From contig CAWDTA010000002.1 in NCBI GenBank assembly GCA_963805085.1, positions 1,088,001-1,152,000 on the forward strand: a stretch of 64,000 nt of DNA, read 5' to 3'. A program made the position numbers and the translations under genes. Shown here one piece after another: positions 2-60,449 of the stretch. Each line of letters begins with the position of its first letter. Position 1 is the stretch's first letter. Source of the DNA: an uncultured Veillonellaceae bacterium. Lineage in GTDB: Bacteria; Bacillota; Negativicutes; JARBTT01. The notes beneath the pieces are model-generated. The model saw nothing but the letters and a program-made list of their open reading frames with translations, had not been told where the DNA came from and did not search any database.

Positions 2-3000
2 TTAAGTGATAAAGAGTTCTGGTGTGCAAAATACCAAACAATTCCAGAGCCGCTTTTTAACAGGTGCACTGATAATGCTGCTAGTAGCGATAGTTCAGTG
101 TTAAGTGATAGGATTACATTTAGTATCAAAAGGGCTGCTTATAATAAAATGATCGAATTTAGTGAAGCAAACGGTTGTAGTGTCTTCCACTTTATTTTGG
201 CAGTGCTGTTTACCTATTTCAGCAGGGTATGTAATAAGGAAGAGATTGTTATCGGCGTTCCTATTCTAAATAGAGGAAAAGCAAAATATAAGCAAATAAT
301 AGGCCTATTTGCTAATATAGTACCTTTAAGAATAAATATAGGGAAAGATATAAGTTTTAGCGAGCTTATGCTTACGATAAAAAATGAACTTATGGAATGC
401 TATAGACACCAGAAGTTTCCTGTTGGAGAAATATACAGAACGGTTTCTGAACAGGGTAAGGAAAAAAATAATATTTTTGATATTTCCCTTTCCTATATAA
501 ATCGTGATTTTAGTGATAATTTTGTCACTGCTAGTGATTATGACATTGTAAGCCTGGCGCATCAGCATGAGCGGAATGCCTTGACGATATTCGTAAGGGA
601 GTATAGCGAGGATAGGGATATCTTATTTGATTTTGATTATCAGATTGGTGTATTTAAAAAATTTATGTCCATTGAATCTGTTATTGCACAGTTTAAATAT
701 TTGCTAGGTGAAGTGATTGAAAACAGTGAGAAAAGTGTCTCTGAGATAGAAATAATTCCTGAAGTGGAGAAACAAAAAATTTTATATGGCTTCAATAATA
801 CAAAGATGGAATATTCAAAAGAGAAGACAATTCAGGAATTGTTTGAAGAGCAGGTTAATAGAGTGCCTGATCATGTAGCTGTAGTTTTTAAAAATACAAG
901 GTTAACCTACGAGGAACTAAATGCCAAAGCAAACCAAATGGCAAAGGTTTTGAGAAATAAGGGAGTAAAGCCTGATAGTATCGTAGGTATAATGCTAGAT
1001 CGGTCTATTGAAATTGTCGTTGGCATACTTGGTGTACTCAAGGCAGGCGGTGCATATCTGCCGATAGATCCAAACTACCCTACGGAAAGAATAAACTATA
1101 TACTGGAAGACAGCGCTACAGGTATTCTGTTAACACAGAAAGATTTAAAAGATAGAGTAAGTTATCAAGGTCAAGTCATTGATATTGAGGATGATATATA
1201 CAAAGGGGACAATGAAAAACTAGAAAATATAAATAAGTCGAGTGATTTGGCATATATCATTTATACCTCAGGATCAACAGGGAAACCTAAAGGAGTTATG
1301 ATAGAGCATAGGGGAATTGCAAATTTAAAGACCTTTTTTCAGCAGAATTATCATGTGGATGAGAAAGATAACATGTTGCAATTTGCTAGTAGTTCCTTCG
1401 ATGCCTCCGTATGGGAAATTTTCACGAGCTTGCTGACGGGTGCAACGTTGTATATGGTTCCTAAGGAAACGATTAACAATCTAGTTGATTTCGAAAATTT
1501 TATTAATAAAAATGAGATAACGATGACACTTCTTCCACCAACCTATTTAGCTAGTATTGAACCCGCAAGAGTAACTAAGTTGAAGAATTTATTCACAGGT
1601 GGGTCTGCTATAACTAAAGGATTGGTTGATAAATGGAAGGAAAGGCTTGTGTATAGTAACGCTTATGGGCCTACGGAGTCAACGATTATGGCAACTACTT
1701 GGAAATATAATGAGCAAGAATTGGGAGATAGTCAGGTGCCGATCGGGAGCCCGGTAAATAATACGGAAATATATATTTTAGATAGCAATAACCAAGTTTT
1801 ACCAATTGGTTCGGCGGGCGAATTGTGCATCGGTGGAGATGGGCTGGCTAGGGGATATCTACACAAACCTGAGTTGACAGCGGAAAAATTTGTAGCTAAT
1901 CCTTACCGAAATGGGGAAAAGATGTACAAGACGGGTGATTTGGCAAGATGGCTTCCCAATGGCAACATCGAATTTCTTGGCAGAATGGATTATCAGGTAA
2001 AGATAAGGGGCTTTAGGATCGAACTGGGGGAAATTGAAGCAGAATTATTAAAGTATCCGGAAGTTAAAGAGGTAATCGTAATTGACCGGGACGGTGAGCA
2101 AGGGGACAAATACCTAGTCGCATATTTTGTAGCAGATAGTCAGTTGACAATAGATGAACTAAGGGAACATTTATTAAAAGAACTACCTGAATATATGGTG
2201 CCTTCCTACATGATGCAGCTTGATAATATGCCTCTGACTTCCAATGATAAGATTGACAGGAAAGCACTACCAGAGCATGATTGTGGTAGTGGATCTGGTG
2301 TGGTGTACGTAGCTCCAAGGGATGATAAAGAAAAAATATTGGTAAAATTATGGCAGGAAGTATTAAAAGTGGAACGGATTGGGATAAGAGATAACTTTTT
2401 CAATCTGGGCGGAGACTCCATAAAAGCAATACAGATATTGTCAAGACTAAATGCTTACAGGCTAAAATTGGAAATGAGAGATTTGTTTAAGCACCCAGCT
2501 ATTGAGGAATTGGGTGCTTTTGTTCAAGAAGTAGCGCGTACAGCAGAACAAGGTCTTATTGAAGGTAAAGCAAATTTGACGCCAATACAGCATTGGCTAT
2601 TTGAGCAAAGATTTGCAGAGAAATATCACTTTAATCAAGCAATTATGCTTTATCGACAAGAAGGTTTTATAGAGGAAATCCTAAAAAATGTATTTAGTAA
2701 ACTGGTAGAACATCATGATGCCTTGAGAATGGTTGCTAAACAGGAAGAAAGTGAGGTCGTTCTGTTTAACAGAGGGCTTGAAGGTAACTTATATTCTTTA
2801 GAAGTATTTGATTTGCGAAAATGCGCTAATTTTAGAGACGTCATTGAAGTAGAAGCGAATAAGATACAGGCAAGCTTAGACCTTTCACAAGGGCCATTGG
2901 TTAAGCTTGGTCTCTTTAAGACGAAAACAGGAGATCAACTTTTAATCGTGATTCATCATATAGTCGTAGATGGTATATCCTGGAGGATTATACTTGAGGA

Positions 3001-6000
3001 TCTTTTTAATGGGTATATGCAGGCTTTAAAGAAGGAAACAATACGGTTCGCCGATAAAACCGATGCTTTTAATGCTTGGACTGTTCAGTTATCTACGTAT
3101 GCCAATAGTTGTGAGTTATTAAAGGAAGTAGAGTATTGGGAGGAAATTGAACGGGTAACTGTAAAAGCGTTGCCTAAGGACCAACCCATTACAGAAAGAA
3201 AATGTGAAGAAACTGAAAAGGTGCATATAGAATTAAGCACACAAGACACGGAAAAATTACTTAAAGATGTAAATCAAGCATATAACACTGAGATTAATGA
3301 TATTTTGCTTACAGCATTAGGATTAGCGGTTAAGGAATGGACAGGTGAGGAAAAAGTATTAATTAATCTAGAGGGACATGGCAGAGAAGAGATAGGTAAT
3401 GAGCTTGATATATCAAGGACAGTCGGATGGTTTACCGCCCAATATCCTGTAATCCTGAACATGAGAAAAAAGAAGGATCTTGCATATAGTATAAAATCAG
3501 TGAAAGAAGGAATGCGGCGGGTTCCGAATAAAGGAATTGGCTATGGAATTCTAAAGTATCTAACTTTGCCAGAAAACAAGAAAAATTTGCAGTTTAACCT
3601 AAAACCAGAAATTAGCTTTAACTATCTTGGACAATTTGGAGAAGATACTGATAACAGTGCATTTAGTATATCGGATATTTCTGTCGGAGAGTGTGTATCA
3701 CCAAATATGGAGCAGCCTTATGCCATTGATATAAATGGCATGGTGACAAAGGGAAGATTGGTATTGGATTTTACCTATCATAAAACTGAGTATGATAGGG
3801 TTACAATTGAAAAATTTGCAGAAAGTTTTAGAAAAAACTTGGTAGATGTAACAATCCATTGTACAGCTCTTGATTATACAGAGATGACTCCTAGTGATTT
3901 CACCTTTAAGAACTTTACCCTTGATGAACTTGAAACTGGATTAAGCAATTTAAATACAAGAAACATAAAAGATTTGTATCGATTGAGTCCTATGCAAGAA
4001 GGCATGCTGTATCATGCAATGAAGGAAAATGAATCTTCAGCGTATTTTGAACAAGTGATTTTATCAATAGAAGGTAAGTTGGATATAGCTAACATAAGAG
4101 AAAGTTTTAACAAGCTTATCGAAGCATATGATGTATTTAGAACTGTATTTGTCTATGAAAAGATAGCAAAACCGATACAAGTTGTTATGAAGGCTCAAGA
4201 AGTATCTGTAAATGTTGAAAATATTACTTGTTTGGCGGAAAGAGAGCAGCAGCTATTTATTGAAAAGTTTAAGGCGAATGACAAAATGGCAGGGTTTAAT
4301 CTCCAGGGAGGTATGCCAATAAGATTAAACGTCATCCAAACAGGGGCAGATTCCTACAAGTTAATATGGAGCTTCCATCATATCATTATGGATGGATGGT
4401 GCCTCGGGATAGTTCTTAAACAATTTTTTGAAATATATGATAGCTTACAAGAAAATAGGTCACTGGAATTAGATAAAGTATATCCATATAGCAACTATAT
4501 TAAATGGCTTGATAGACAAGTAAATAAGGGTGCGCAAACTTATTGGGAAGGATACTTAAGTGATTATCAAGAGCAGGTATCACTTTCTGGATATAACGGT
4601 GTCTTACCACAGGGCGGATATGAACAAGAAGAGTTTCGCTTTAGTTTTGATGAGAAAATAAAATCTGGTCTTGAGAATATAGCCAAGAAAAACAATGTAA
4701 CTCTTAGTACGATAATTCAAACTATATGGGGGCTCTTGCTTGCAAGGTATAATAATACCGATGATGTTGTTTTTGGTGCGGTCGTGTCGGGAAGACCTCA
4801 TGAAATAGTGGGTGTAGAAAGCATGGTGGGGTTATTTATAAACACTTTACCAGTAAGAATAAAATGCGAGGGTAATCAATCATTGGCACAATTGCTGCAA
4901 GAAGTGCAATTAGCTGCGATAGAATCTGAGGAATTTAGCTATTATCCTCTTGTGGAAATACAGGCAAGGACAAGTATGGGAGATGCTCTGTTTGATCATA
5001 TTGTTGCTTTTGAAAATTACCCAATAGAAGAGGCAATAAACGGTAACTTTAGTGTTAATATAAAAGCGGCTGAAGCTTTTGAACAGACCAATTATGATTT
5101 TAATATGGTCGTTATTCCAGGTAGGGAATTAAACATCAAGTTTATGTATAATTCATTGGTTTATGATAGAGGATTTATTGGAGCCCTTAAGGTGCATTTC
5201 GAAACAATGATCTTAGGAGCGATTGGCAATCCGGAGATATTGGTAAAAAATATAGATATGCTTACGATAGAAGAGGAAAAGGTGCTTTTAGATACTTTTA
5301 ATCATACGAAAACTGACTACCCAAAAGATAAGACCATATCAGAACTCTTTGAGGAGCAGGTTAAGAGGACGCCTAATAATATAGCAGTAGCTTTTAAAGA
5401 TCAGAGACTAACGTATGGCGTATTAAATGAAAAAGCTAACCAACTAGCAAGGGGATTAAGAAGTAAGGGGGTAACGACAAATCATATTGTGGGAATTATG
5501 GCAGAGCGTTCTCCGCAAATGTTGGTTGGGTTATTAGCTATTTTGAAGGCAGGAGGAACTTATTTACCTATCGATCCTGAATATCCGTCAGATAGGATTA
5601 GCTATATGCTGTCGGATAGTGGGGCGCAAATATTATTAACACAAACACATTTGCTTAGTAAGACTGCTTTTAACGGGGTCATTATTGATTTAGAAGAAGA
5701 AAGATTATATCAAGGTGATGCTAACAATTTAATAAGAGAAAATACCTCACAAGATGTAGCGTATGTGATTTACACATCAGGTTCAACGGGGAAACCAAAA
5801 GGAGTTGAGATTGAACACACTAGTTTGGTAAATCTTGTATTCTGGCATCGGCGTGCGCATCATATTACCTCTGAGGATAGAGCTACTCTAGTGGCTGGAC
5901 CAGCGTTTGACGCTTCGGTTTGGGAGACTTGGCCATATCTGGTTTCCGGTGCGGGGCTATATATTCCCAATGATGAAATCAGAGTGTCAACGACAAGTCT

Positions 6001-8317
6001 TATTAAGTGGTTGCAAGATAACTTAATCACTGTAAGTTTTATGCCGACACCATTGGCGGAAGCGCTTTTAGCAGAGGAGTGGCCAAGTGAGATATCGTTA
6101 AGGACTATGCTGACAGGTGGAGATAAATTACATCGTCGGCCTAATGCAGATATGCCATTTACGTTGTTTAATCAGTATGGACCAACTGAGAATACAGTGG
6201 TTACTACTTGGGGGGCCATCAGGCCAGAAGATGCAGTTGACACTTTACCATCAATCGGTCGTCCTGTGGATAATACAAATGTCTATATATTGAATAGATA
6301 TGATAGACTGCAACCAATTGGTGCCCCGGGAGAATTGTGCATTTCAGGCGATAGTCTGGCTAGAGGCTATTTAAACAGACCTGATTTGACGGCGGAGAAG
6401 TTTATTCCAAATCCGTTCAAATCAGGTGCGAGGATGTATCGGACAGGAGATTTGGTAAGATGGCTGCCGGATGGCAATATAGAGTTTCTTGGGCGAATTG
6501 ACCACCAGGTCAAGATTAGAGGATTTAGAATGGAACTGGGGGAAATAGAAAGCCAAATATTAAAGCATCAGGCAGTTAAGGAAGCGGTAGTAATAGCCAG
6601 AGAGGATAAGCAAAATGACAAATATTTGGCAGCATATCTGGTAGCAGATCGTGAATTGACAGCGAATGAGCTTAAGGCGTATCTATTAAAAGAACTGCCT
6701 GAATATATGGTACCATTGTACTTCACTCAGCTTGATAAATTACCTTTGACTCCTAATGGCAAGATTGACCGAAAGGCGTTGCCTGTTCCTGATGGATGGG
6801 GCAGCACGGGAGAATGCTATATAGCCCCACGAAATGAAGCTGATGGAAGAATCCAAAAAGTCTGGGAAGATATACTTGGAATCGATAGAATTGGAATTGA
6901 TGATAATTTCTTTATGCTTGGAGGCAATTCGATAAAAGCAATACAAGTTGTTGCCAAATTGGCACTGGATTTTGAGATCGGGATAAATGATATTTTCCAA
7001 TGCCAGACCATAAGGAAGATCTCTGATACAATAAAATACTCTAAAGATAGATTAAAGGCAACGATTGACGCTATGAGTGAAGCGGCTGCGGCAAAGGATA
7101 ATTTGATTAACTTCGATGGAGCCATTCGAGACAAGTTGAGAAAGTATAAAACTAAAAATCAAGTCTACAAAAAGGCCAATCTTTTTGAAACAGTTCCGTA
7201 TAAAAATATCCTGCTTGCAGGGAGTACCGGTTATCTTGGAATACATATTCTATACCAGTTACTAGAAAATACTGATTATATGGTGTATGTAACGATCCGG
7301 GCTAAAGATGATGAGGAGGCAAAAGAAAGGTTGTGGGGTAAACTGGAGTTTCATTTTAATCTTAGCAGCAATGATCGAGATATTTTAAAAAATAGAATTC
7401 GTGTAGTCCATGGTGATTTATCAAAAGAGTACCTTGGTTTAGATTATACAAAATATATGGAGTTGGCAGACACCATTGATTGCATCATAAATTCTGCAGC
7501 CAATGTTAAGCATTATGGACATTACTCCGAATTTGATGCTGTAAATGTGAAGGGGAATCAAAGACTCGTTGAATTCGCAAATACGGGCAAGAAAAAAGCA
7601 TATAATTTTATATCCACCACCAGTGTAGGAAGCGGATATGTAGCTAGAAAAGACAAGCTTGTATTCACAGAATACGATTGTGATTTAGGGCAGAGTTCGG
7701 ATAACTATTATGTAGCAACTAAATTGGAAGCAGAGAAATTGTTGCTAAAATCAAGAGAAGAGGGGCTGACGACAAATGTTTTCAGGGTTGGAAATCTTGT
7801 ATTTGATTCTGCATCCGGAGTGTTTCAGGAAAATATAGAAAATAATGCTTTTTATAACATGATAAAATCGTTAATAAAAATTGGTTATTTCCCGCAAATG
7901 AATGATAGAAGTATAAATTTTTCCTTCATCGATTATGTTGCTAAAGCGATTGTATTGCTGTTTGATAAGAAAAATTTACAGAATGAAACCTTTCATTTAT
8001 ATAATAGTAACCAAATTAGTATCGTTTCATTGGCAGAACTTTTAAATGAAGTGGAAATAAATGTAAAAACAATTCCTGTAGATGAGTTCATACAATATTT
8101 GTACGAAAAGTTTGAAGATGAAGAAACAAAAAGTTATATTTCTAGAATTCTCGTTCACTCTAATATGTTTTTTGAAGGGGCAAGTAAAACCTCATTTATG
8201 ATACGCAATGAAAAAACAGAAAACATTTTGAAAGAGTTAAACTTCAAATGGCCTAAAATGAATGGTTTAAGGGTCAGATTGATGATGGATCACTGTAAGA
8301 GAGTTGGATTTATGTAG
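2..8317 (+). CDS. Non-ribosomal peptide synthetase, 5'-truncated by the window edge; domains C(starter-like)-A-T-E-C-A-T-R (terminal thioester reductase)
   Basis: Frame is open from nt 2 (LSDKEFWCAKYQTIPEP...) into ORF 98..8317. A-domain cores YTSGSTGKPKG, YGPTE and TGD occur twice; T motifs LGGDSI (~2408) and LGGNSI (~6920); E motifs HHIVVDGISW, EGHGRE and RTVGWFT; C motif HHIIMDGWC; R domain GSTGYLG (~7220) and YxxxK (YVATK, ~7710). Confidence 0.96.
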   Translation, partial: LSDKEFWCAKYQTIPEPLFNRCTDNAASSDSSVLSDRITFSIKRAAYNKMIEFSEANGCSVFHFILAVLFTYFSRVCNKEEIVIGVPILNRGKAKYKQIIGLFANIVPLRINIGKDISFSELMLTIKNELMECYRHQKFPVGEIYRTVSEQGKEKNNIFDISLSYINRDFSDNFVTASDYDIVSLAHQHERNALTIFVREYSEDRDILFDFDYQIGVFKKFMSIESVIAQFKYLLGEVIENSEKSVSEIEIIPEVEKQKILYGFNNTKMEYSKEKTIQELFEEQVNRVPDHVAVVFKNTRLTYEELNAKANQMAKVLRNKGVKPDSIVGIMLDRSIEIVVGILGVLKAGGAYLPIDPNYPTERINYILEDSATGILLTQKDLKDRVSYQGQVIDIEDDIYKGDNEKLENINKSSDLAYIIYTSGSTGKPKGVMIEHRGIANLKTFFQQNYHVDEKDNMLQFASSSFDASVWEIFTSLLTGATLYMVPKETINNLVDFENFINKNEITMTLLPPTYLASIEPARVTKLKNLFTGGSAITKGLVDKWKERLVYSNAYGPTESTIMATTWKYNEQELGDSQVPIGSPVNNTEIYILDSNNQVLPIGSAGELCIGGDGLARGYLHKPELTAEKFVANPYRNGEKMYKTGDLARWLPNGNIEFLGRMDYQVKIRGFRIELGEIEAELLKYPEVKEVIVIDRDGEQGDKYLVAYFVADSQLTIDELREHLLKELPEYMVPSYMMQLDNMPLTSNDKIDRKALPEHDCGSGSGVVYVAPRDDKEKILVKLWQEVLKVERIGIRDNFFNLGGDSIKAIQILSRLNAYRLKLEMRDLFKHPAIEELGAFVQEVARTAEQGLIEGKANLTPIQHWLFEQRFAEKYHFNQAIMLYRQEGFIEEILKNVFSKLVEHHDALRMVAKQEESEVVLFNRGLEGNLYSLEVFDLRKCANFRDVIEVEANKIQASLDLSQGPLVKLGLFKTKTGDQLLIVIHHIVVDGISWRIILEDLFNGYMQALKKETIRFADKTDAFNAWTVQLSTYANSCELLKEVEYWEEIERVTVKALPKDQPITERKCEETEKVHIELSTQDTEKLLKDVNQAYNTEINDILLTALGLAVKEWTGEEKVLINLEGHGREEIGNELDISRTVGWFTAQYPVILNMRKKKDLAYSIKSVKEGMRRVPNKGIGYGILKYLTLPENKKNLQFNLKPEISFNYLGQFGEDTDNSAFSISDISVGECVSPNMEQPYAIDINGMVTKGRLVLDFTYHKTEYDRVTIEKFAESFRKNLVDVTIHCTALDYTEMTPSDFTFKNFTLDELETGLSNLNTRNIKDLYRLSPMQEGMLYHAMKENESSAYFEQVILSIEGKLDIANIRESFNKLIEAYDVFRTVFVYEKIAKPIQVVMKAQEVSVNVENITCLAEREQQLFIEKFKANDKMAGFNLQGGMPIRLNVIQTGADSYKLIWSFHHIIMDGWCLGIVLKQFFEIYDSLQENRSLELDKVYPYSNYIKWLDRQVNKGAQTYWEGYLSDYQEQVSLSGYNGVLPQGGYEQEEFRFSFDEKIKSGLENIAKKNNVTLSTIIQTIWGLLLARYNNTDDVVFGAVVSGRPHEIVGVESMVGLFINTLPVRIKCEGNQSLAQLLQEVQLAAIESEEFSYYPLVEIQARTSMGDALFDHIVAFENYPIEEAINGNFSVNIKAAEAFEQTNYDFNMVVIPGRELNIKFMYNSLVYDRGFIGALKVHFETMILGAIGNPEILVKNIDMLTIEEEKVLLDTFNHTKTDYPKDKTISELFEEQVKRTPNNIAVAFKDQRLTYGVLNEKANQLARGLRSKGVTTNHIVGIMAERSPQMLVGLLAILKAGGTYLPIDPEYPSDRISYMLSDSGAQILLTQTHLLSKTAFNGVIIDLEEERLYQGDANNLIRENTSQDVAYVIYTSGSTGKPKGVEIEHTSLVNLVFWHRRAHHITSEDRATLVAGPAFDASVWETWPYLVSGAGLYIPNDEIRVSTTSLIKWLQDNLITVSFMPTPLAEALLAEEWPSEISLRTMLTGGDKLHRRPNADMPFTLFNQYGPTENTVVTTWGAIRPEDAVDTLPSIGRPVDNTNVYILNRYDRLQPIGAPGELCISGDSLARGYLNRPDLTAEKFIPNPFKSGARMYRTGDLVRWLPDGNIEFLGRIDHQVKIRGFRMELGEIESQILKHQAVKEAVVIAREDKQNDKYLAAYLVADRELTANELKAYLLKELPEYMVPLYFTQLDKLPLTPNGKIDRKALPVPDGWGSTGECYIAPRNEADGRIQKVWEDILGIDRIGIDDNFFMLGGNSIKAIQVVAKLALDFEIGINDIFQCQTIRKISDTIKYSKDRLKATIDAMSEAAAAKDNLINFDGAIRDKLRKYKTKNQVYKKANLFETVPYKNILLAGSTGYLGIHILYQLLENTDYMVYVTIRAKDDEEAKERLWGKLEFHFNLSSNDRDILKNRIRVVHGDLSKEYLGLDYTKYMELADTIDCIINSAANVKHYGHYSEFDAVNVKGNQRLVEFANTGKKKAYNFISTTSVGSGYVARKDKLVFTEYDCDLGQSSDNYYVATKLEAEKLLLKSREEGLTTNVFRVGNLVFDSASGVFQENIENNAFYNMIKSLIKIGYFPQMNDRSINFSFIDYVAKAIVLLFDKKNLQNETFHLYNSNQISIVSLAELLNEVEINVKTIPVDEFIQYLYEKFEDEETKSYISRILVHSNMFFEGASKTSFMIRNEKTENILKELNFKWPKMNGLRVRLMMDHCKRVGFM

Positions 8318-8426: not shown

Positions 8427-9059
8427 ATGAAATCGTTGGATGATTATGATGAATTGATGCTATACCCTGAGGAATTAGGAATTCTTAGTTCTAAAGCTGT
8501 ACCAAAACGCAGAATTGAATTTTGTATAGGCAGGGCTGCAGCGCATAGTGCTTTAAGTAAAATAGGTATAAAAAATTTTCCTGTTCTTAAGGGAGTTCAT
8601 AATGAACCCTTATGGCCGAAAGATGTGGTCGGTGCTATTAGTCATTCGGGCGAATTAGCACTGGCTGCAGTGGCCCATAAAGAAGAGACTACGGGAATTG
8701 GTATCGATATCGAAATGATAGATAAAACGATATCAGAGGACATCATAAAGATAATATGTACGCCAAGGGAGGCTGACTGGGTAAATAGGAGAAAGGACCG
8801 GAAACTTCAAAGACTGTTTATGATGTTTTCTGCAAAGGAAAGCATTTTTAAAGCTTTTTTTCCTATAACGAATGTACCTCTTAATTATTTCGATACTAAA
8901 CTTATATGGCATGAGGATATGGGATGTTTTTCAGGTCAATTGCTAACGCGAGTGGGGGAAGAATATAAAGAAGGATATCTTTTTGAGGTAGGATGTAGAA
9001 CACTTGATAAGTATATATTTACGTTTATGACGTTACCTTTGCTTACAGCCCCGCATTAA
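8427..9059 (+). CDS. 4'-phosphopantetheinyl transferase (EntD-like)
   Basis: Motifs RRIEFCIGRAAA, EPLWP..VVGAISHS, GIGIDIE, FSAKESIFKA; directly follows the NRPS. The true start may lie slightly upstream. Confidence 0.9.
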   Translation: MKSLDDYDELMLYPEELGILSSKAVPKRRIEFCIGRAAAHSALSKIGIKNFPVLKGVHNEPLWPKDVVGAISHSGELALAAVAHKEETTGIGIDIEMIDKTISEDIIKIICTPREADWVNRRKDRKLQRLFMMFSAKESIFKAFFPITNVPLNYFDTKLIWHEDMGCFSGQLLTRVGEEYKEGYLFEVGCRTLDKYIFTFMTLPLLTAPH

Positions 9060-9143: not shown

Positions 9144-9902
9144 ATGCTTGGGAAATTGCTGCCTTGGTTGGCAGCTGTGGATTTACCACGACCAAAACCG
9201 GAAGCGGCTGCAGTGGAGCTTACGGCTGTGCGTAAAATTTATATGACTGGTGCCGGTGAATTTATGGCATTGAAAGGAATCGATCTTAAAGTTGATAACG
9301 GCGAATTTGTGGCGGTAGTTGGCAAATCAGGTAATGGTAAGTCTACATTGATCAATATGATTACTGGCATAGATCGACCTACTTCTGGAGACGTTTGGGT
9401 GGCAGGTACACCAGTGCATACTCTGACAGAAAATCAGATTGCTGTATGGCGAGGGCGTACGGTAGGCGTTGTGTTTCAGTTTTTCCAGTTGCTGCCTACG
9501 CTTACAGTGCTAGAAAATGTGATGCTACCCATGGATTTTTGTAATGTCTACGATCCTTTAGAACGGCCAGAACGAGCCATGGAAATCTTAAAATTGGTCG
9601 GTGTGGAAAACCAGGCGGACAAAGTGCCGGTCAGTCTGTCTGGAGGTCAGCAACAACGGGTGGCTATTGCCCGTTGCCTGTCTAATGATCCTCCGCTTAT
9701 AGTGGCCGATGAACCAACGGGCAATTTGGACCCGCGCACTGCTGAATCAGTTATTGAATTGTTCAGAGAATTAACTCGTGGAGGAAAAACGATTCTGATG
9801 GTTACTCATGATGAGGATTTAGCCCGCCGAAGCAGTAGAATTGTAACTGTATCTGAGGGACAGATTGTTCGGACATCGCCTGCTCGAGAGGGGGCATTAT
9901 GA
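9144..9902 (+). CDS. ABC transporter ATP-binding protein (MacB/LolD type)
   Basis: Walker A GKSGNGKS, signature LSGGQQQRV, Walker [13 protein letters not shown]-loop VTHD. Confidence 0.95.
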
Positions 9903-12325
9903 TCAGCTATTTTCTATTATCTCCACGTTGGCGAAAGGTATGGACGGATATATGGGGCAATAAGCTGCGAACGATTTTAGTGGTACTGTCTATCTCAGTT
10001 GGGGTGTTTGCAGTTGGGATGGTTTACAGTTCCTATTTGATGTTCCAACGGGATCTGGCCATTAGTTGGCGGACAGCGTCACCAGCTAATGCCAGCTTGA
10101 TTGCGGATCCTTTTGATGAGGAATTGGTACAGGCCATCCGAAGCATGAAGAGTATTAAAGAGGCTGAGGGGCGGCGTAACGTCAACTTGCGGGTTAGTAC
10201 CAGTGATGGTCAGTGGAGCCAGCTGGTTTTGGTTGCGATTCCAGACTATGTTAAGCAAAAAGTTAATGTGGTGCGTCATCTATCCGGAGCTTGGCCGCCG
10301 GGGGATGGTGATGTTCTATTGGAGCGGTCATCTGTGAATGAACTAGGGGTAAAACAAGGTGATAGAATTATAGTCGAGACTTCCACTGGACGTAAACGAT
10401 CTATGAAAGTGGCCGGGACTGTATATGATCCGAGTCAGATCCCAAGCTTGTTCAGCGGAAACTATTATGGCTATATCAGCATGGACACCCTAGATAAATT
10501 GGACGAGGCGCGTCAATTGGATCAAGTTAATTTAGTAGTCGAACCTTGGGTACTGCAAGGTAAAAATACGGAGCCAATCAAAACAGTAGGACGGCAGGCT
10601 TGGAGAAAACTTGAACAGGGTGACACGCTTGTATCGTGGCTGCAGGTAAATACACCAGAAGAACATCAAATGCAGGGGGCTATCAATGCGCTATTGCTAT
10701 TGCTGGCAGTATTAGGGGGATTGTCGTTGCTGCTGGGAACTTTCTTGCTGGTGAATACGATATCAGCTATATTAGCCCAGCAGGTGCGCCAAGTTGGCAT
10801 TATGAAATCTATTGGGGCGCGCAACGATCAGATTTTACGGATGTATTTGAGCCTTGTAGGGGCGTATGGAATTTTGGCATTGCTGGTGGCAGCACCATTA
10901 GGTGCTTTGGCAGCCAGTATGGTGACTAGCATTATCTCTGGAATGTTCAATTTTGATTCTGGTGGATTGGAATTACCAGCTAGGGTCATCATGCTGGAAA
11001 TAATGGTGGCCATTCTGGTGCCATTGTTAGCAGCATTGGGACCAATCTGGCATGGAACAGGTGTAACTGTTAGAGAAGCGATAAATGATTATGGTATCAG
11101 TGGCATTCAGGCAAGGGGAAGGATGGATCGTTGGGTTGATGCTGCTTTAGAACGGCTAAAAAAGCTGCCAAGACCAGTTGTATTGTCACTTCGAAATACC
11201 TTTAGACGTAAAGGTAGACTAGTACTTACCTTGTTGACATTAACTGTTGCTGGCACGGTATTTATGGCAGTGTTCTCTGTCCGTTTGTCTTTGGATTCAA
11301 CATTAGACCAAGCACTGGATTACTTTAATTATGACGTTTCAGTGCAATTTACCCAGAGTTATCGGTCTAGCAGAATTGAGCAGGAGGTATTACAGGTGCC
11401 CGGAGTTAAGGCGGTTGAATGTTGGGGACGAACCTCAGGACGAGTGTTGGAAGATGAGACAAAGGGGGCTGAAGCTAGTAAGAATGTGTTTATTCTAGCT
11501 CCGCCAGTCAACACAAAGATGATTAGCCCCCAGCTTATCGAGGGGCGTTGGCTTTTACCCAATGATGAAAGTGCTTTGGTAGTGAATACTGAGGTTTTGA
11601 AAGACAGTCCACAGCTAAAGGTAGGCGAAGTGGCTGTGGTTATGGTTGGGGATCGCAAATTGCGATTCACGGTGGTTGGTGTTGTCCAGGGAATTTTAGC
11701 TGGACCTATTGTTTATGCTCCATACGACTGGTTTACTGGAGCGGTGCAAGAGACTGGACGAGCTCGTTCAGTGCAGATTGCGGCTAATTCATCGGATATT
11801 AAAGAACAAAGTGCTTTAGGTAGAGCGGTAGAAAAGCAATTGAAAAAAAATAGTCTGCGTATTCAAAATGCAAGTATTACTTGGGAACAGAAAAAACGTA
11901 TTCGGTCTCAATTTGATATCATTACTACATTTCTGCTTATTATGGCGATATTGTTGGCAGTGGTTGGGGCACTGGGATTGGCAGGCACTATGGGAATTAA
12001 TGTACTGGAAAGAACTAGGGAGATCGGTGTGATGCGATCTATTGGCGCTTCAAGTGTGGACATCGGCAAGGTATTTGTGGTGGAAGCTTTATGTATCGGT
12101 CTGCTCAGCTGGATAGCGGGGATGGTTTTGGCCGTACCAGTGGCGTGGATGCTAAGTCAGGAAGTAGGGATATTGTTTCTGAAAAATCCTTTGGCTTTTT
12201 CATTCAGTTTTCAAGGGGTTGGCATTTGGTTAGGATTATCGACTATGTTATCGATAGTTGCAAGCTTATTGCCAGCATGGAATGCGGCTCGGCTAAGTGT
12301 GCGGGATGTACTAAGTTATGAATAA
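9899..12325 (+). CDS. ABC transporter permease, FtsX/MacB-like, with duplicated periplasmic and TM halves
   Basis: Two repeats of N-terminal TM, extracytoplasmic domain and three TMs; motifs [11 protein letters not shown] and [11 protein letters not shown]; ATGA overlap with the ATPase gene. Confidence 0.92.
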
Positions 12326-12349
12326 TATGATACAAAGGGAGACTTTTAT

Positions 12350-13243
12350 ATGGCAATGATAAAACGACATTGGCTGCTGTACTTGTTAGTGATCGCGGTA
12401 TTAGCTGTAGGCGTAGGCTCGTGGTCTTTTTTTAATAGTCGTCAAGGACAAACGAAAGACATACCGGTGGTAAAAGCCGATGATAGGGTATTGGCAGAAG
12501 GCATAGTATATCCGGTACATTATGCCGAGATGTCAATGCCTGTCGAAGGAACGATTGGTGAAATACTGATCAAAGAAGGGGATAATGTGGTGGCAGGACA
12601 ACCTATTATCCGGTTAGTGCGTGAAGATTATCAAGAACGGGTGGGGAGTGATCGATCAAACGTGGCTGGAGCTGTTGCTGCTGTGGAGCAAGCGCGTGTA
12701 AATGTGGCAGATGCAGAACGGGAATTGCGGCGTCAGCAGCGACTTGAAAATGCCGGAGCGGCAACTAGACAGAAAATCGAACAGGCCCAGATGGAGGTAG
12801 AACGAAAGAGGGCAGCCTTGACTCAGGCTCAGGCAGATGTAAGTGTAAGAGAAGGAAAGGTCTCAGAATCTCAAAAAGTATTAGATAAGGCAGAAATAAG
12901 GGCACCGATAAATGGAACAGTGGTCTTCTTGGATGTGAAGGTAGGCGAACATGCCACTACGGGTAAAGTGCTGGTGCGGATTGCTGACGAATCGGGCTGG
13001 GAGGTACGCAGCGATGATTTAACAGAATTGGCTATAGCTAAGCTTAAGATCGGGGATGCAGTGAATTTGACCTTTGATGGTATACCAGAACTGGATATTC
13101 CAGGAAGGATAAAGTTCATCCGTTCTTATGGAGAGAAAAAAAGAGGCGATATGACTTACACGGTATTCATTGCTCCAGAACAGTGGGATAATCGATTGCG
13201 TTGGAATATGACTGCACAAATAGCCATTTCGCCGTCTGAATAA
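12350..13243 (+). CDS. Efflux membrane-fusion (periplasmic adaptor) protein, HlyD/MacA family
   Basis: N-terminal TM anchor; lipoyl-like halves (GTIGEILIKEGDNV; IRAPINGTV); coiled-coil hairpin. Confidence 0.9.
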   Translation: MAMIKRHWLLYLLVIAVLAVGVGSWSFFNSRQGQTKDIPVVKADDRVLAEGIVYPVHYAEMSMPVEGTIGEILIKEGDNVVAGQPIIRLVREDYQERVGSDRSNVAGAVAAVEQARVNVADAERELRRQQRLENAGAATRQKIEQAQMEVERKRAALTQAQADVSVREGKVSESQKVLDKAEIRAPINGTVVFLDVKVGEHATTGKVLVRIADESGWEVRSDDLTELAIAKLKIGDAVNLTFDGIPELDIPGRIKFIRSYGEKKRGDMTYTVFIAPEQWDNRLRWNMTAQIAISPSE

Positions 13244-13286
13244 GATTATCGACAGTTTTTATAATCATTTATCGAGGAGGCGTAAC

Positions 13287-14612
13287 ATGGTAAGACAACA
13301 AATATGGAGAAAATATTTACTTGCAGTACTGATTGGAGGAATACTCCTAGTAAATCCTTCGTATGTATTGGCAGCTCCCTTAGAATTATCGATTGCTGAT
13401 AGTGTCGCTTTGGCGTTTAAAAATAGTCCCAGTGTAAGAATGACGGAAGATGATAAAGTAATTTCAAATTGGGCAATTGCTGAGGCAAAGGCGAATTTTG
13501 GTCCTAGTATTAAGTATTCACATAAGGATACTCGGACGGGAATCCCGCAATATTCATTAGGACAGTATCTATCCGGTACACCGTTTGCTGATATTGCATT
13601 TGGTGGTATATATAATTCATTCGGAAATACAATCAGCGTTAGCGTGCCTCTTTATACGGGAGGGGGATTAGAAGGAAAACTTGAGAAAGCGAAAAAAAAT
13701 CTTCAGGTTGCCGATCTTGAAGTTGAGAAGAATAAGCAGCAGCTTAAGCTTGACACGACAACTGCTTATTTTGATGTTTTGGGAGCACTTAATCAGTTAC
13801 GAGTGAATCAAGAATCTCTTGATAATCTCACAGCGCATTTGAAAAGTGTTCAGGCACAGTATGAAGAAGGTGTAGTAAATAAAGCTGACGTCCTCCGTTC
13901 TCAGGTTGAAGTGATAAATGCTCAGCAAGATGTTATGGTAGCCAACAATAAATACAACTTGGCAATGGTTAGTTTAAAAAAAGTGATGAGTTTACCCCTT
14001 ACTAGTGAGATTAAGTTAAAAGATGATTTAAACTATCAACAATATAAGGCTACTGTTGATGAGTGTGTAACATATGCATTAGAGAATCGTCCAGATGTCA
14101 TACAAGGGCAAACTAAAATTGATATTGCAAAGAGTGAGGTAAAAGTGGCTAAAAGCAATAATTCGCCGCAAGTTAGTTTCACTGGTAGCAATAATTGGGA
14201 TACCGATAGTTTTCCTGGTTGGAAACAAGACTATTGGATGGTGAGTCTTACCGCCTCAATCAATGTATTTGATTCTGGGCTTACGAAAGCAAAGGTGAAA
14301 GGAGCAGAAAGTTCCGTAGATAAGGCACAGGACGGAATCGAGCAGATACGAGAAACTGCGGCTCTCGAAGTAAGCCAAGCTTATTTAAATCTAAAGGTAG
14401 CAGAAGAACGAATTGAGACAAGCAAAAATGCTGTAGATAAGGCGCAAGAAGCATTTAGAATTAATGAGATTTGCTATGAAGAAGGTGTAGGCAAAAATTT
14501 AGATGTTATTGATGCTCAATTGGCGTTGGTTAAGGCTAAGACTAATTATAATCAAGCACTATATGACTATAATAGCAGCAAAGCAAAATTGGATAAAGCA
14601 ATGGGTATTTAA
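13287..14612 (+). CDS. tolC: TolC-family outer-membrane efflux protein
   Basis: Signal peptide; two OEP repeats (PLYTGG...YFDVL; VFDSG...AYLNL; YEEGV..LDVIDAQ); follows the MFP gene. Confidence 0.9.
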   Translation: MVRQQIWRKYLLAVLIGGILLVNPSYVLAAPLELSIADSVALAFKNSPSVRMTEDDKVISNWAIAEAKANFGPSIKYSHKDTRTGIPQYSLGQYLSGTPFADIAFGGIYNSFGNTISVSVPLYTGGGLEGKLEKAKKNLQVADLEVEKNKQQLKLDTTTAYFDVLGALNQLRVNQESLDNLTAHLKSVQAQYEEGVVNKADVLRSQVEVINAQQDVMVANNKYNLAMVSLKKVMSLPLTSEIKLKDDLNYQQYKATVDECVTYALENRPDVIQGQTKIDIAKSEVKVAKSNNSPQVSFTGSNNWDTDSFPGWKQDYWMVSLTASINVFDSGLTKAKVKGAESSVDKAQDGIEQIRETAALEVSQAYLNLKVAEERIETSKNAVDKAQEAFRINEICYEEGVGKNLDVIDAQLALVKAKTNYNQALYDYNSSKAKLDKAMGI

Positions 14613-14654: not shown

Positions 14655-15653
14655 TTGATAGGAAAAAATGTAACGGGTATGGCGGTGGAAATCAACAATC
14701 TTAGCAAAAGTTTCAAGAAAAGCAGTGGAACTCAGTTTATAGCGGTTGATAATATTAATCTTGGTGTACATAAGGGTGAAGTATTCGGATTTCTAGGATC
14801 AAATGGTGCAGGCAAAACTACGACGATAAAAATGATGTGTGGTCTAGTAACACCAACAACTGGACGGATATTGCTTAATGGCTGTGATGTTGGACTAGAA
14901 CATGGCGAAGCCATGCGGCAAATCGGTGTGGTATTAGAAGGAACGAGAAATATCTATTGGCCTTTGACCGCGTGGCAAAATATAATGTACTTTGGAAATT
15001 TAAAGGGCTGTTCAAGAAAAGATAGTAAGGAGCGGGGGGAAGCGCTCCTTAAAGAATTGGAACTTTGGGATAGGCGTAATGATATCATACGGAATTTTTC
15101 ACGGGGAATGCAGCAGAGAATTGCGATTGCTTGTGCTTTGATTGCTGATCCTTCTATTCTGATTTTCGATGAACCGACGCTAGGACTTGATGTGGAAGCG
15201 ACGCAGATCATGAAAGCATTGTTAAAGCGATTAGCGCAAGATTATAAAAAAACGATAATCATTACTTCGCATCAGTTGGACGTAGTGCAAGAGCTTTGTG
15301 AGCGCGTCGTTATTATGCATAAAGGGAAAATAATCGCTGATAAGAATCTTAATGAATTACTTATGCTTTTTGGACAGAATTATTACCAGATTAAGATAAG
15401 GGGAACATTCGATGGTTTTAGAGATGATGAGCTAAAGAATTTCATTATCAAAGAGGAAGAAGGGACTACTTTATTGACTGGATTGATTGAGAGTCAAACA
15501 AAATTATATAGTTGGCTTGATAAAATCAGAGAACAGGGAATGGCGTTAATTTCTGTATCTCCTTTAGAACCAGATTTAGAAGAAGTATTTTTAAAACTGG
15601 TAAAAAACGAAAGGGAGAGTGATAATCGTGAAAACATTAAAAATTATGCTTAA
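14655..15653 (+). CDS. ABC-2 type exporter ATP-binding protein
   Basis: GSNGAGKTT, FSRGMQQR, DEPTLGLD, SH switch, C-terminal LEEVFL. Confidence 0.93.
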   Translation: MIGKNVTGMAVEINNLSKSFKKSSGTQFIAVDNINLGVHKGEVFGFLGSNGAGKTTTIKMMCGLVTPTTGRILLNGCDVGLEHGEAMRQIGVVLEGTRNIYWPLTAWQNIMYFGNLKGCSRKDSKERGEALLKELELWDRRNDIIRNFSRGMQQRIAIACALIADPSILIFDEPTLGLDVEATQIMKALLKRLAQDYKKTIIITSHQLDVVQELCERVVIMHKGKIIADKNLNELLMLFGQNYYQIKIRGTFDGFRDDELKNFIIKEEEGTTLLTGLIESQTKLYSWLDKIREQGMALISVSPLEPDLEEVFLKLVKNERESDNRENIKNYA

Positions 15654-16413
15654 TGAAACATATAAAGGCTTACTTATTGCCTGGAACTATAAATTTGAAA
15701 CTTTTTTGCAACTGGTAATGATGGGGGTCATCTTTATTGGTATAGGTTTTATTATCGGCGGAGGAAAGTTGAGCACAGAAAAGCTTGCCTATACGCTAGT
15801 TGGTTATTCGATATGGCTATATTCTTCAATTGTCATTTCTGGTATGTGTCGTGAGTTATTAGGAGAAGCCCAAGCGGGGACATTAGAACAAATTTTTATG
15901 AGCCCTGTTTCTGTGTCACTCATATTAATCGGTCGATCTTTTTCCACATTAATTACGGCGACAATCAATATTTTATTATTTATAATAGTCATCGTATGGG
16001 GAATGGAAATTAATATTTCCGTACCATGGCGAACCCTTGTTATTTTTGTTCTTACTATGGCAGGATTATTTGGTTTTGGTTTCGTAATTGCTGGCTTAAC
16101 CTTGATTTTTAAGCGAGTTGGTGAACTTGCAGGGCTAACGACAAATGCATTACTTTTCTTGAATGGCTCTATGTTACCTGTTGAGCAATTTCCCAAATGG
16201 CTGGCTTTATTCGCCAAGACGTTACCAACGACCCAAGGGATTAGCTTACTACGTGATACTCTATTGGATATGAAACTCTTAAATGATTTATGGCAAGATG
16301 GCAGCCTGATATTGCTTTGTTGCCAGTCTATCATTTATTTTGGGGGTGGACTCCTGATTTTCATCTTGTGTGTAAGAAGAGCGAAACTTCAAGGAACATT
16401 AGGACATTACTAA
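15619..16413 (+). CDS. ABC-2 type exporter permease
   Basis: About 6 TM segments; EAQAGTLEQIFMSP motif; overlaps the ATPase gene. Confidence 0.88.
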   Translation: MIIVKTLKIMLNETYKGLLIAWNYKFETFLQLVMMGVIFIGIGFIIGGGKLSTEKLAYTLVGYSIWLYSSIVISGMCRELLGEAQAGTLEQIFMSPVSVSLILIGRSFSTLITATINILLFIIVIVWGMEINISVPWRTLVIFVLTMAGLFGFGFVIAGLTLIFKRVGELAGLTTNALLFLNGSMLPVEQFPKWLALFAKTLPTTQGISLLRDTLLDMKLLNDLWQDGSLILLCCQSIIYFGGGLLIFILCVRRAKLQGTLGHY

Positions 16414-53862: not shown

Positions 53863-55341
53863 TTAGATTATACATTCGCGACTCGAATAATTAGCGGCGA
53901 TTTTTTTCTCAGCATCCGTTAATAATCGTTTACGCAATACAACTTGCATTTCGTCAACGGCACGTGGAGTAGCAAGAATCTCAGCCAAGGAGGCATGGTT
54001 CGCTTGCATGGCAAGTCCGGCGGAATTCAGTGTAAATAGATTTTCCACTAAGTCAAATCTCGCTTCCGTCCAACCAACATACCAACTCCATTCCGTATAA
54101 TAAAGCCAGCTCTTTTCATTAAATGCCCGCACATGAGTTGGATCCTGCCATGCTCCACAAGACAAATCATAGGGAACATTAATTTTAAAAACACCTCCTA
54201 CTTTTAATAATTTCAAACACACGGTCATCGCCGTAATTAACTCCCTAATATGTTCTAAAACATGACTTGCAATAATCTCATCGAAGGAGTCTTCCTTGAT
54301 CGTTATTATGCCAAATCGTGCAGTTGCAACTTCCTTATTTAAAGGAAAATTATTACTTATGTCAGCAACGACATCAGGCTGCCAATACTGGTTTATATCA
54401 ATATTCAACCAATCTGGCCGAAAAAGCTTCCCACTGCCAAGGTTTATAATTGTTGGTAGCTGTTGTAATTCATTTTTAACAAGGGTTTTTTCAGTAATCA
54501 CGTCACGCAAAATATCGATTTCATTTCTTAAACTAAAACTTTCAAACCCATTCTTCTCCAATAGTTGGCGTTTCTCATCATTGTTAACAAGCTTGATACA
54601 GGTTTCAACAAGTTTATCATAAGGTACTAAAGCAACGGCTGTTCTTAAATCATCAGCAATTTCAGTGTTGTCATTGCATTCAGCGACAACTGCTTTATGA
54701 TTAGCTAATAAATAAGATATTCGAACAATCTCAAATATACTAGAAGCATAAAAATGAATATTAATGATTACTTTGGCCCGGGCAATAGCTACATCTCTTT
54801 CCTTTCCATATACACCAAATAAAGTAACAACAGTAAGCCCACTTTTTTTTAGCTCTTCCATAATTTTTTCACGCCTTACATTCATAGAACCATAAAATAA
54901 AACATCAATATCTTGGGGTGAAACTGGGGCGATGCAGGTCAACTCTGGTACATAACCGATTGGCACATAATATAAAAGATTTTTACAACCCATTTTTCTA
55001 TATTTTTCAATATTGCGTTTGCTATAATCCCATACAGTAAACCTCTTAAACAAAGGCAGCGTTGCAGCGTTAAGCATAGATTTCGAATCAAATTGTTCTA
55101 AATTATAAATAATTGAAGACAAAGGAATTTTATCAATCAAGTCTGCCGTTATAAGATGGATACCTAAGATAATATTAATATTGTCCATTGAAAAGTCGTT
55201 TTCTGTAATTATGATGTTATACCCTAGTCTTTCTATTCCATACCTTAGCATTGTTGCGACCTCTCGAAACCCATCGGAATGTTGATATCCCTGTGGACGA
55301 ATAATTACAATTTGGTAGGTAGTCAAACATACAGGTTCCAT
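53863..55341 (-). CDS. Glycosyltransferase-like (CgeB/YkvP-like) domain fused to a class I SAM-dependent methyltransferase
   Basis: N-terminal DIDVLFYGS..RR and INIHFY...FEIVRISYLLAN; C-terminal INLGSG, ASHVLEH, LKVGG, WQDPTHVR. Confidence 0.7.
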   Translation of the reverse strand: MEPVCLTTYQIVIIRPQGYQHSDGFREVATMLRYGIERLGYNIIITENDFSMDNINIILGIHLITADLIDKIPLSSIIYNLEQFDSKSMLNAATLPLFKRFTVWDYSKRNIEKYRKMGCKNLLYYVPIGYVPELTCIAPVSPQDIDVLFYGSMNVRREKIMEELKKSGLTVVTLFGVYGKERDVAIARAKVIINIHFYASSIFEIVRISYLLANHKAVVAECNDNTEIADDLRTAVALVPYDKLVETCIKLVNNDEKRQLLEKNGFESFSLRNEIDILRDVITEKTLVKNELQQLPTIINLGSGKLFRPDWLNIDINQYWQPDVVADISNNFPLNKEVATARFGIITIKEDSFDEIIASHVLEHIRELITAMTVCLKLLKVGGVFKINVPYDLSCGAWQDPTHVRAFNEKSWLYYTEWSWYVGWTEARFDLVENLFTLNSAGLAMQANHASLAEILATPRAVDEMQVVLRKRLLTDAEKKIAANYSSRECII

Positions 55342-55566
55342 TTCAACACCTCATACCTTTTGGATATATCTATGTTAATCGTTTTAAGTATATGACTATA
55401 TTTAGCCATGTAGTCATATTGAGCGGAGATTTAAGGAATATATTGGTTGGCTTTCAAAACTTAACTAGTACACAAAAATTATATATCAATTCTGTTTCAC
55501 GTCGTTGTCACTCTATGCGTATTATAGGGTGATAACATTTTTTTTTGAAAAAGGAGGCTAATTATT

Positions 55567-56268
55567 ATGTCAGATAAAGATGAAGAACGTTATGGATGTC
55601 ATGGATGTCATGGATATAATGAGTGTAATGAGTGTAATGAGTGTAATGAGTGTAATGAGTGTAATGAGTGTAATAAATTTTCAACAGCATGTTTTATGAT
55701 CCCGGAACCAGGTGCTCAAGGAGCCACCGGAGCCACTGGACCTGCGGGTAGCTCTACTGGAGCAACAGGGCCAACAGGAGCAACAGGACTAACAGGAGCA
55801 ACAGGACTAACAGGAGCAACAGGCTTAACTGGTGATACGGCCCAAATAAGCGGGAGGGAAATTCAGTTACAAAATCCAGCAGTAGTATCTGTTGCATCCG
55901 GAGCACCTGTTTTGTTTGACACAACAGTAAGCGTTCAGTCACTTTTTATTGCATATAACGCATTGACAGGCACGATAACCATTACGGAGACAGGCGTTTT
56001 CTATATTAATTGGTGGGTATCAGTTGATGGGATGGAAGGCGGAGTAGATTTAGTGCCGACATTTTCCATAATTACTTCTGAAGGCGATAATGTAAGAGCA
56101 TCAAGTCCGATCATAACAGGACAATTGAGTGGAAATGCTTTAATTGAAGTTGTCGCCACCCCAATAAGCCCGGTGACTTTACAACTTGTAAATGCTACTG
56201 ATGCAACCATAGGCTATGGTGCAACGCCAATTAAGGCAGATTTAACAATTTTTAATGTAACTTTTTAA
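55567..56268 (+). CDS. Short BclA/BclB-like collagen-repeat spore-surface protein with Cys-rich N-terminus
   Basis: GXT triplets; C-terminal beta-rich domain ([10 protein letters not shown]); RBS AGGAGG. Confidence 0.8.
55592..55674 (+). repeat. 9-bp tandem repeats encoding (GCH)2 and (ECN)6
   Basis: GAGTGTAAT x6 (55621-55674) preceded by ATGGATGTC x2. Confidence 0.95.
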
Positions 56269-56390
56269 TTTATAACCCATAGAAACTGCTGATTTGACAA
56301 GTCAAAATATAATAGGAAAATTAACAAGAATAGAAAGAGTCATGTAGATATATTGAACATGACCCTTTTCATAATATATGGCACATTGTG

Positions 56391-60258
<3,868 letters not shown>

Positions 60259-60274
60259 CAAAGTTACCTGTCTA

Positions 60275-60318: not shown

Positions 60319-60449
60319 TCGTAATGAGATTCACTGTAGCGCGAATAACGACGAATTTGTTTTTGTAGAAAATGGAAGTGTATTTTTTATTAATAAACAA
60401 TGCCACCAATGAATATATTTGTAATATATTCCGGAGGAGGTATTGAAAA

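Follow-up and report, generated by a model that had tools for sequence, protein, structure and literature searches.

Two questions are raised by the nonribosomal peptide synthetase (NRPS) gene at the left end of this stretch of DNA: what it produces, and whether it forms an assembly line of its own or the end of a longer one. The stretch, called the window here, comprises 64,000 nucleotides of an uncultured Veillonellaceae bacterium (assembly GCA_963805085.1, contig CAWDTA010000002.1) and corresponds to G000:C2:1088001-1152000. Window 2-8317 on the forward strand is a single open frame of 2771 codons with an open 5' end. It is the larger part of a real two-module NRPS gene, named N5 below. A first-pass annotation, made from the window sequence, predicted an N-acyl-D-Leu-L-Leu aldehyde or alcohol as its product. 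Analysis of the whole locus indicates that N5 is probably an autonomous line for an N-acyl-D,L-dipeptide aldehyde or alcohol of Leu-like residues, which would be modified by a partner protein, C4, encoded directly upstream. The operon, a 4'-phosphopantetheinyl transferase (PPTase) and an exporter would be shared with a lipopeptide line, which consists of a fatty acyl-AMP ligase (FAAL) and the synthetases N1, N2 and N3.

In the whole-genome view, N5 has 2966 codons (C2:1087417-1096317). Its ATG is found 584 bp 5' of the window and is preceded, at a distance of 8 nt, by AAGGAG; this start site lies 23 nt past the C4 stop. The 195 residues encoded 5' of the window and the window part together make one complete condensation (C) domain with the motif HHIIIDG, before the first adenylation (A) domain. 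The first-pass annotation had expected such a start, a few hundred base pairs upstream with a single C domain. Its reading of the domain order, C-A-T-E-C-A-T-R (T, carrier; E, epimerase; R, thioester reductase), is confirmed by Pfam, by the motifs and by a domain tree. In the window part, Pfam recognises three Condensation stretches, two AMP-binding, two AMP-binding_C and two PP-binding stretches, and one NAD_binding_4 at the C terminus (E 1.5e-49).

All domains are on the forward strand. The C-terminal ~260 residues of the first C domain are encoded by window 2-784 (PF00668 at C2:1087447-1088784; a Pfam search with the N-terminal 394 amino acids also shows the domain), and its HHIIIDG lies 160 bp before window base 1. 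A1 occupies 842-2254, the end being approximate (Pfam AMP-binding at residues 281-620 of protein P0001), and is followed by the carrier T1 with LGGDSI at 2339-2524 (PP-binding, residues 780-841). The E domain corresponds to 2561-3904 (PF00668 at C2:1090561-1091904), and the epimerase motifs PIQHW, HHIVVDG, EGHGRE and FNYLG are intact in this middle C-type domain. The second C domain, at 3968-5290 (Pfam, residues 1323-1763), shows LSPMQEGML and HHIIMDG. A2 lies at 5340-6763 with an approximate start, as placed by Pfam and the A-domain alignment. The carrier T2, the second PP-binding stretch, lies at 6850-7050 with approximate limits, and its LGGNSI is at 6917. The terminal R domain extends from 7214 through the stop at 8317 (NAD_binding_4, residues 2405-2650), with GSTGYLG and YVATK intact. 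N5 shows the C-A-T-C-A-T-R order and the NAD(P)H-binding, Tyr/Lys-bearing R domain of reductase-terminated bimodular NRPSs. It departs from the dipeptide-aldehyde type of NRPS, which has no epimerase and an L-to-L second C domain, as it contains an E domain and its second C domain belongs to the DCL clade.

A tree of 51 C-type domains, taken from this cluster, from the N5 orthologues and from sequences named GrsB, TycB and LicB in their source, shows four well-separated groups; characterised starter C domains, SrfAA and LicA included, are not among the 51. The E group includes the N5 domain at residue 1180, the N2 domain at 1016, and the last C-type domain each of TycB and LicB; we take the latter two to be E domains. 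The DCL group unites the N5 domain at 1654 and the first C domain of N3 with those C domains that come first in GrsB, TycB and LicB, presumably of the DCL type. Each of the five N1 C domains belongs to the LCL group, as do the remaining two N3 domains and those located internally in GrsB, TycB and LicB. The first C domain of N5, which the first-pass annotation had likened to starter C domains, is in neither the LCL nor the DCL clade. The fourth group consists of this domain, its orthologues and two further N-terminal C domains, with support of 95-99 in the Shimodaira-Hasegawa-like approximate likelihood-ratio test (SH-aLRT). Its PF00668 score is 281.8 bits, versus 444.8-474.2 bits for the LCL domains of the cluster. 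Because of the separate clade and the lower score, the domain is not an ordinary elongation C domain. It opens the first module, and there is no NRPS partner beside N5 at the loci G034, L030, L037 and L039. The catalytic second His is retained in all 30 family members, and nine of them have another residue in place of the motif's first His; this gene has the full HHIIIDG.

The specificity codes were read from an alignment of 37 A domains. It reproduced exactly the codes that the first-pass annotation had read by hand, DAWLFGAIMK for A1 and DAWFLGQVVK for A2. For LicB, these columns read DAFWIGGTFK, DLTKVGHIGK and DAWFLGNVVK, which we take to be the codes of its Val, Asp and Leu modules. A2 is identical to the third-module code of LicB at nine of ten positions, and this LicB module presumably loads Leu. 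Negativicutes orthologues have DAWFLGHVVK at A2. At A1 the orthologues vary as DAWL[F/I/V]GA[V/I][I/M]K, and no exact or close reference code for A1 was found among the 37 domains. The Leu-Leu prediction is plausible: A2 is near a presumed Leu code, and A1 has no exact match. Two hydrophobic, Leu-like residues are a fair reading of the codes.

The gene directly upstream of N5, outside the window (C2:1086102-1087394), encodes C4, a free-standing C-fold protein of 430 amino acids. This partner escaped the first reading, and it may alter the final product of N5. The longest C4 frame starts 5' of the N3 stop; aligned relatives start at codon six of C4, 3' of that stop. At all 16 loci examined (the own locus, G034, G184, G108, G051, L029, L030 and L032-L040), relatives of C4 and N5 are neighbouring genes or one fused gene. 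Some of these loci probably represent one organism more than once: L032 and this genome share 98-99% identity, and a neighbouring gene of L038, the gene X described below, is identical to that of G108. L027 and L028 were kept out of the count as apparently the same contigs as loci already counted, and so was G110, where an N5 fragment is on a 3.9-kb contig. In L029 and in protein P0010, C4 and the NRPS form one continuous frame, with ~20 residues linking C4 to the NRPS N terminus. These fusion proteins are 3404 and 3406 amino acids long and 92.6% identical to each other. C4 is an obligate partner of N5.

A profile of the C4 family showed no match beyond the own genome among 400 genomes of the phylum. 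A scan of genome contigs with a 5-sequence C4 alignment revealed three loci, and metagenome contigs searched with a 6-sequence alignment revealed nine (L032-L040), with an N5 relative next door in all nine. The gene order in L040 is N5 then C4, the same as in a Paenibacillus record, which is the only record with a C4 relative in the plasmid collection. In a profile search against 1.84 billion representatives, 93 relatives were found at E <= 0.001 and 42 at E <= 1e-30. C4 scores 21.9 bits against Pfam Condensation, below the cut-off of 30.6, and has no match in NCBIfam. The family motif is [N/S]HxxxNG, represented by NHxxxNG in C4. The His is retained in 42 of the 43 aligned members, and the position of Asp in HHxxxDG is Asn in 30 of the 43.

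The structure model of C4 by AlphaFold2 (AF2; predicted local distance difference test, pLDDT, 93.3; predicted template modelling score, pTM, 0.92) adopts the fold of NRPS C domains (Foldseek E ~1e-16). The best structural match among ~48,000 chains is AzeD (8s6l_A; Z 30.5, root-mean-square deviation 3.5, 391 aligned), followed by heterocyclisation (Cy) domains at Z 26.0 or below; PapA5 (Z 24.1) and wax-ester synthase (Z 21.2) are also among the matches. A 5-sequence C4 profile detected nothing relevant among PDB sequences. The 43-sequence profile placed AzeD first (E 1.6e-11; next, E 1.2e-8). The family His is aligned with the His of PHxxxDG in AzeD. C4 is closer to AzeD than to other C-type domains, by fold and by profile.

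According to the available text of its report, AzeD of Pseudomonas aeruginosa is a stand-alone C-family dehydratase, which dehydrates a free alcohol produced by the short-chain reductase (SDR) AzeE. The "C_standalone" clade was established with AzeD and has 35 homologues, placed near Cy and E domains; one-third of these homologues vary in the first His and one-third are near NRPS or polyketide synthase (PKS) genes (bioRxiv 10.64898/2026.07.17.738954). C4 resembles AzeD in being a stand-alone C fold that retains the motif's second His but not its first, and, as far as the AzeD pathway is described there, in belonging to an NRPS pathway where a reductase acts first. C4 differs in that its partner NRPS ends in an R domain and not in a thioesterase (TE), and in that its reductase is an NRPS domain, whereas that of AzeD is described as a free SDR. 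No Baeyer-Villiger monooxygenase (BVMO) or cytochrome P450 (P450) gene accompanies C4, and in two records C4 forms part of the NRPS polypeptide. By analogy with AzeE and AzeD, dehydration after reduction would be the likeliest single chemistry for C4. An acyl-transfer role is nearly as likely because of the structural matches to PapA5 and wax-ester synthase and the labels of its neighbours in the protein language-model (Atlas) search. A predicted complex of C4 with carrier T2 scored 0.00 in a run made without controls, which is evidence neither way.

The lipopeptide line (G000:C2:1051381-1086120; loci L009, L010 and L011) is upstream of N5 on the same strand. N1 (6289 amino acids) includes a carrier, ketosynthase (KS), acyltransferase (AT), ketoreductase (KR), and another carrier, followed by four C-A-T modules and one more C domain. 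N2 (1352 amino acids) has half a C domain and then A, T and E. N3 (3359 amino acids) has DCL-A-T, C-A-T and C-A-T-TE, and its terminal TE is intact, with GFSAG and GTHD. The A-domain alignment gives DGIFLGGVFK, DAKDLGVDVK, DGFFLGAVFK and DAWTIAAICK as codes 1-4 of this line and DVWHFSLVDK, DAWFLGHVVK, DAKDLGVDIK and DGFFLGAVFK as codes 5-8. Judged from these sequences, the domain content suggests a beta-hydroxy-acyl octapeptide with one D residue. At the N1/N2 junction (G000:C2:1070561-1072776), N1 ends with a full LCL domain. All that precedes the A domain of N2 is a C-domain lobe, the C-terminal one (PF00668 187-456, 89.1 bits; ~23% identical to C domains). Either a module is split here or the junction is a recombination scar.

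The first-pass annotation had noted that additional upstream NRPS genes would make N5 the end of a longer peptide. Such genes are present; still, they belong to a separate line, and N5 is not the tail of a longer peptide because the upstream line ends in its own TE. Among 300 other genomes sampled from the class, five have a match to the first N5 C domain (E <= 1e-60). In G034, whose genome is 100% complete, the locus consists of LytTR, a LoaP-like antiterminator, a type II thioesterase, C4, N5, gene X, MacB, HlyD and an outer-membrane protein (OEP) gene. No orthologue of the PKS part of N1 was found in G034, only matches resembling fatty acid synthase (29-32% identity). G184 and G108 show the order N3-C4-N5, as at the own locus; in G051, transporter genes are between the lipopeptide genes and C4-N5. 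In Paenibacillus (L030), an NRPS homologue (51-54% identical) lies amid housekeeping genes and is directly followed by a C4 homologue annotated as a hypothetical protein (50.6% identity). An N3-like gene is upstream at six of the nine metagenome loci, and none is beside the pair in L037 and L039. Hence, at least four loci (G034, L037, L039 and L030) have no lipopeptide-line gene beside C4-N5. Orthologues of the PKS part of N1 (63-80% identity) are present in five genomes of the class sample; four of these also have N5, and the fifth, G172, is 65% complete. The two lines are often neighbours yet separable, as the pair occurs without lipopeptide genes at several loci.

The steps of biosynthesis can be proposed as follows; the acyl donor, the amino acids, the oxidation level of the product and the action of C4 are putative. 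The starter-type C domain of N5 would put an acyl group, from acyl-CoA or an acyl carrier protein (acyl-ACP), on a Leu-like residue held on T1, and the E domain would then flip this residue to D. The DCL domain would couple the D residue to another Leu-like residue, carried by T2. The R domain, using NAD(P)H, would then free the N-acyl-D,L-dipeptide reductively as an aldehyde, or as an alcohol after a second reduction. C4 would act on the N5 product or on its tethered precursor; for example, it may dehydrate the cyclic carbinolamide form of the aldehyde. In the own genome, the C4-N5 pair would be co-transcribed with the line of FAAL, PKS, eight NRPS modules and TE, with the PPTase and the MacB-HlyD-TolC exporter common to both. 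A more specific version is put forward tentatively and is unlikely to be right in all its particulars. It holds that C4 and N5 constitute a two-enzyme unit, sometimes one polypeptide, in which C4 is an AzeD-like dehydratase turning the reductively released N-acyl-D,L-dipeptide aldehyde, via a cyclic carbinolamide, into an unsaturated heterocycle. The unit would occur in Negativicutes, Paenibacillus and Clostridia, commonly beside lipopeptide synthetases, with which it would share regulators and exporter. Candidates for the heterocycle are an N-acyl dihydropyrazinone and a 2,4-disubstituted oxazole, each of which would keep only the D centre of residue 1. An E domain confined to module 1 would fit a product whose first stereocentre is retained and whose second is lost.

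Three other explanations can be weighed against an autonomous N5 line. It is possible, if rather unlikely, that the two lines converge. C4 would then be a condensing or ester-forming enzyme, linking the N5 product or its tethered precursor to another unit, acyl or peptidyl (the lipopeptide, for instance), or O-acylating the dipeptide alcohol. The latter would parallel fatty-acyl reductase and wax-ester synthase. C4 has the fold of the C superfamily, conserves a His and resembles PapA5 and wax-ester synthase structurally, PapA_C and WS_DGAT_C labels are found on 10-18% of the Atlas neighbour members, and the pair often adjoins other megasynthases. The top sequence and fold match of C4, on the other hand, is the dehydratase AzeD and not an acyltransferase, the Asp of HHxxxDG is mostly Asn in the family, and coupling to a lipopeptide is impossible where the pair stands alone. 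Another explanation is that the first C domain of N5 is silent and that a free dipeptide aldehyde cyclises by itself to a pyrazinone, as with the gut clostridial enzymes. The replacement of the first His in some family members would suit this, and related C-A-T-C-A-T-R enzymes yielded isolated pyrazinones, according to the text available of PMC12327764. It is nevertheless highly unlikely: the catalytic second His is invariant in the family and the own gene keeps the whole motif, and an E domain would presumably be purposeless if both alpha carbons turn planar in the pyrazinone. The least likely explanation is that N5 represents the last two modules of the upstream synthetase, giving one ten-residue lipopeptide released reductively. 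The genes from FAAL through N5 are all on one strand with overlapping or very short gaps, and an N3-like gene is directly 5' of C4 at the own and eight other loci, as such a single line would predict. Against it, an intact TE terminates N3, the LCL and DCL clades, which take in all elongation C domains of the cluster, do not include the first C domain of N5, the pair is found without N1-N3 in G034, L030, L037 and L039, and the transporter genes in G051 part the lipopeptide line from the pair.

Several observations weigh against an autonomous N5 line modified by an AzeD-like C4. The position of the pair directly behind an N3-like gene at nine loci, the own one included, and the presence of N5 in four of the five genomes with N1 orthologues are frequent co-occurrences, so that a chemical link between the lines is possible. 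The first C domain is set apart in a tree that holds no bona fide starter C sequence, and its top matches among PDB sequences are the LCL domain TycC6 (E 1.8e-36) and the starter C domain of RzmA (E 3.5e-35); thus, an LCL domain scores as well as a starter domain. Paenibacillus orthologues have a different code, DAWLVGAVIK, in both modules. The codes of A1 and A2 were not found in the full-text literature, and neither were four orthologue codes and one Leu code; this has little weight, as codes are usually given in tables or supplements. Leu-Leu specifically is plausible but a guess, because of the code in the Paenibacillus orthologues and the absence of the N5 codes from print. C4 is only about 12% identical to AzeD, with NHxxxNG in place of PHxxxDG, and its Atlas neighbours are labelled Condensation, PapA_C and WS_DGAT_C, which would fit an acyltransferase. 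In the available text of their report, the authors of AzeD leave the dehydratase role of other clade members open, with dehydration demonstrated for AzeD alone (bioRxiv 10.64898/2026.07.17.738954).

Among the known systems, N5 is comparable to the dipeptide-aldehyde NRPSs of gut Clostridia, which, in the available text of PMC12327764, are described as two modules plus a thioester reductase producing small dipeptide aldehydes. N5 is similar to these enzymes (that for ruminopeptin of Ruminococcus bromii and those yielding pyrazinones) in having two modules that end in R. Its first C domain matches many proteins of ~2480 amino acids with Condensation, AMP-binding, PP-binding and NAD_binding_4 domains at 25-28% identity; these proteins may differ from the published clostridial enzymes. 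Unlike the clostridial enzymes, N5 has an E domain followed by a DCL domain and an obligate C-fold partner gene, and it belongs to a diderm host with a TolC-type exporter and to an operon shared with a lipopeptide line. AusA (aureusimine) and MxcG (myxochelin) end in a reductase as N5 does. N5 scores 1573.6 and 1135.6 bits against their NCBIfam models, below the curated cut-offs of 2500 and 2300, and the matches span only parts of the models. The surfactin/lichenysin-type synthetases are similar in the N-terminal C domain before the first A domain and in the third-module code of LicB, which A2 approaches; they differ in release, which is by R in N5 and not by TE.

The full N5 architecture is common to 24 of 120 listed relatives, and the family is found in anaerobic diderm Firmicutes and Paenibacillus. 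No characterised member from Paenibacillus or Negativicutes was found in the literature searched. Small peptide aldehydes act as protease inhibitors and signalling molecules. The locus indicates that a domain string alone may mislead, as the end product of N5 is maybe not a simple aldehyde, and that neighbouring megasynthase genes within one operon need not form one assembly line. The pairing and fusion of C4 with N5 provide a second, genetically clean setting in which the roles of stand-alone C-family enzymes can be learned.

Downstream of N5 is the adjacent PPTase gene that the first-pass annotation had pointed to, at window 8427-9059 on the forward strand. It is Sfp-type, with the Pfam domains 4PPT_N and ACPS. 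N5 also has a PPTase gene as its neighbour in G184 and G108, and the G051 cluster likewise contains one. It is followed, all on the forward strand and assigned by Pfam, by genes for a MacB-type ATPase (9144-9902), an FtsX permease (9899-12325), an HlyD adaptor (12350-13243) and a TolC-type OEP (13287-14612). This MacB-HlyD-TolC exporter set (9144-14612) is kept next to C4-N5 in G034, G184, G108 and G051. The OEP gene in the cluster agrees with the diderm host assumed in the first-pass annotation, as do the names that the source gives to the relatives: Sporomusaceae, Acetonema and Lucifera. An ABC-2 transporter pair (Pfam) is encoded at 14655-16413 on the same strand. Among the relatives, it is present only at the three loci with the lipopeptide line, and not in G034.

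Upstream of FAAL, at G000:C2:1044597-1049425 (L011:8598-13426), there are an agr-like set (histidine kinase, AgrB and LytTR), a LoaP-like antiterminator and a type II thioesterase. The antiterminator of the own cluster scores 119.2 bits, with a cut-off of 125. The trio of LytTR, LoaP and type II thioesterase is directly before C4-N5 in G034; in the own genome, a chemotaxis receptor gene is between the trio and FAAL. Gene X, encoding a DUF362 and 4Fe-4S ferredoxin protein of ~381 amino acids, follows N5 in most Negativicutes relatives. It was located at L020:11660-12802 on the reverse strand and is beside N5 in L024, L026, L029, L034, L036, L038 and L039. X is absent at the own locus and was not found elsewhere in the own genome, which is 83% complete.

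Two further features are observed in the window. Window 17728-51612 contains a second large cluster, with PKS genes of 4331, 1938 and 3101 amino acids, which have KS, dehydratase (DH), KR and carrier domains and no AT. The cluster also has two free-standing acyltransferase genes, a second PPTase gene and a terminal thioesterase; on its predicted domain content, it is a trans-AT PKS cluster. Window 56663-59866 is GC-rich (0.56), purine-skewed and open in several frames. No Rfam match was found in window 55000-61500. The region 56663-59866 encodes a collagen-like protein with a globular N-terminal part followed by long runs of G-x-T triplets, and the frame wanders in the repeats. Outside the window, further Condensation-domain genes are observed at other NRPS loci of the genome, G000:C3:184227-192403 and C1:171908-173200.

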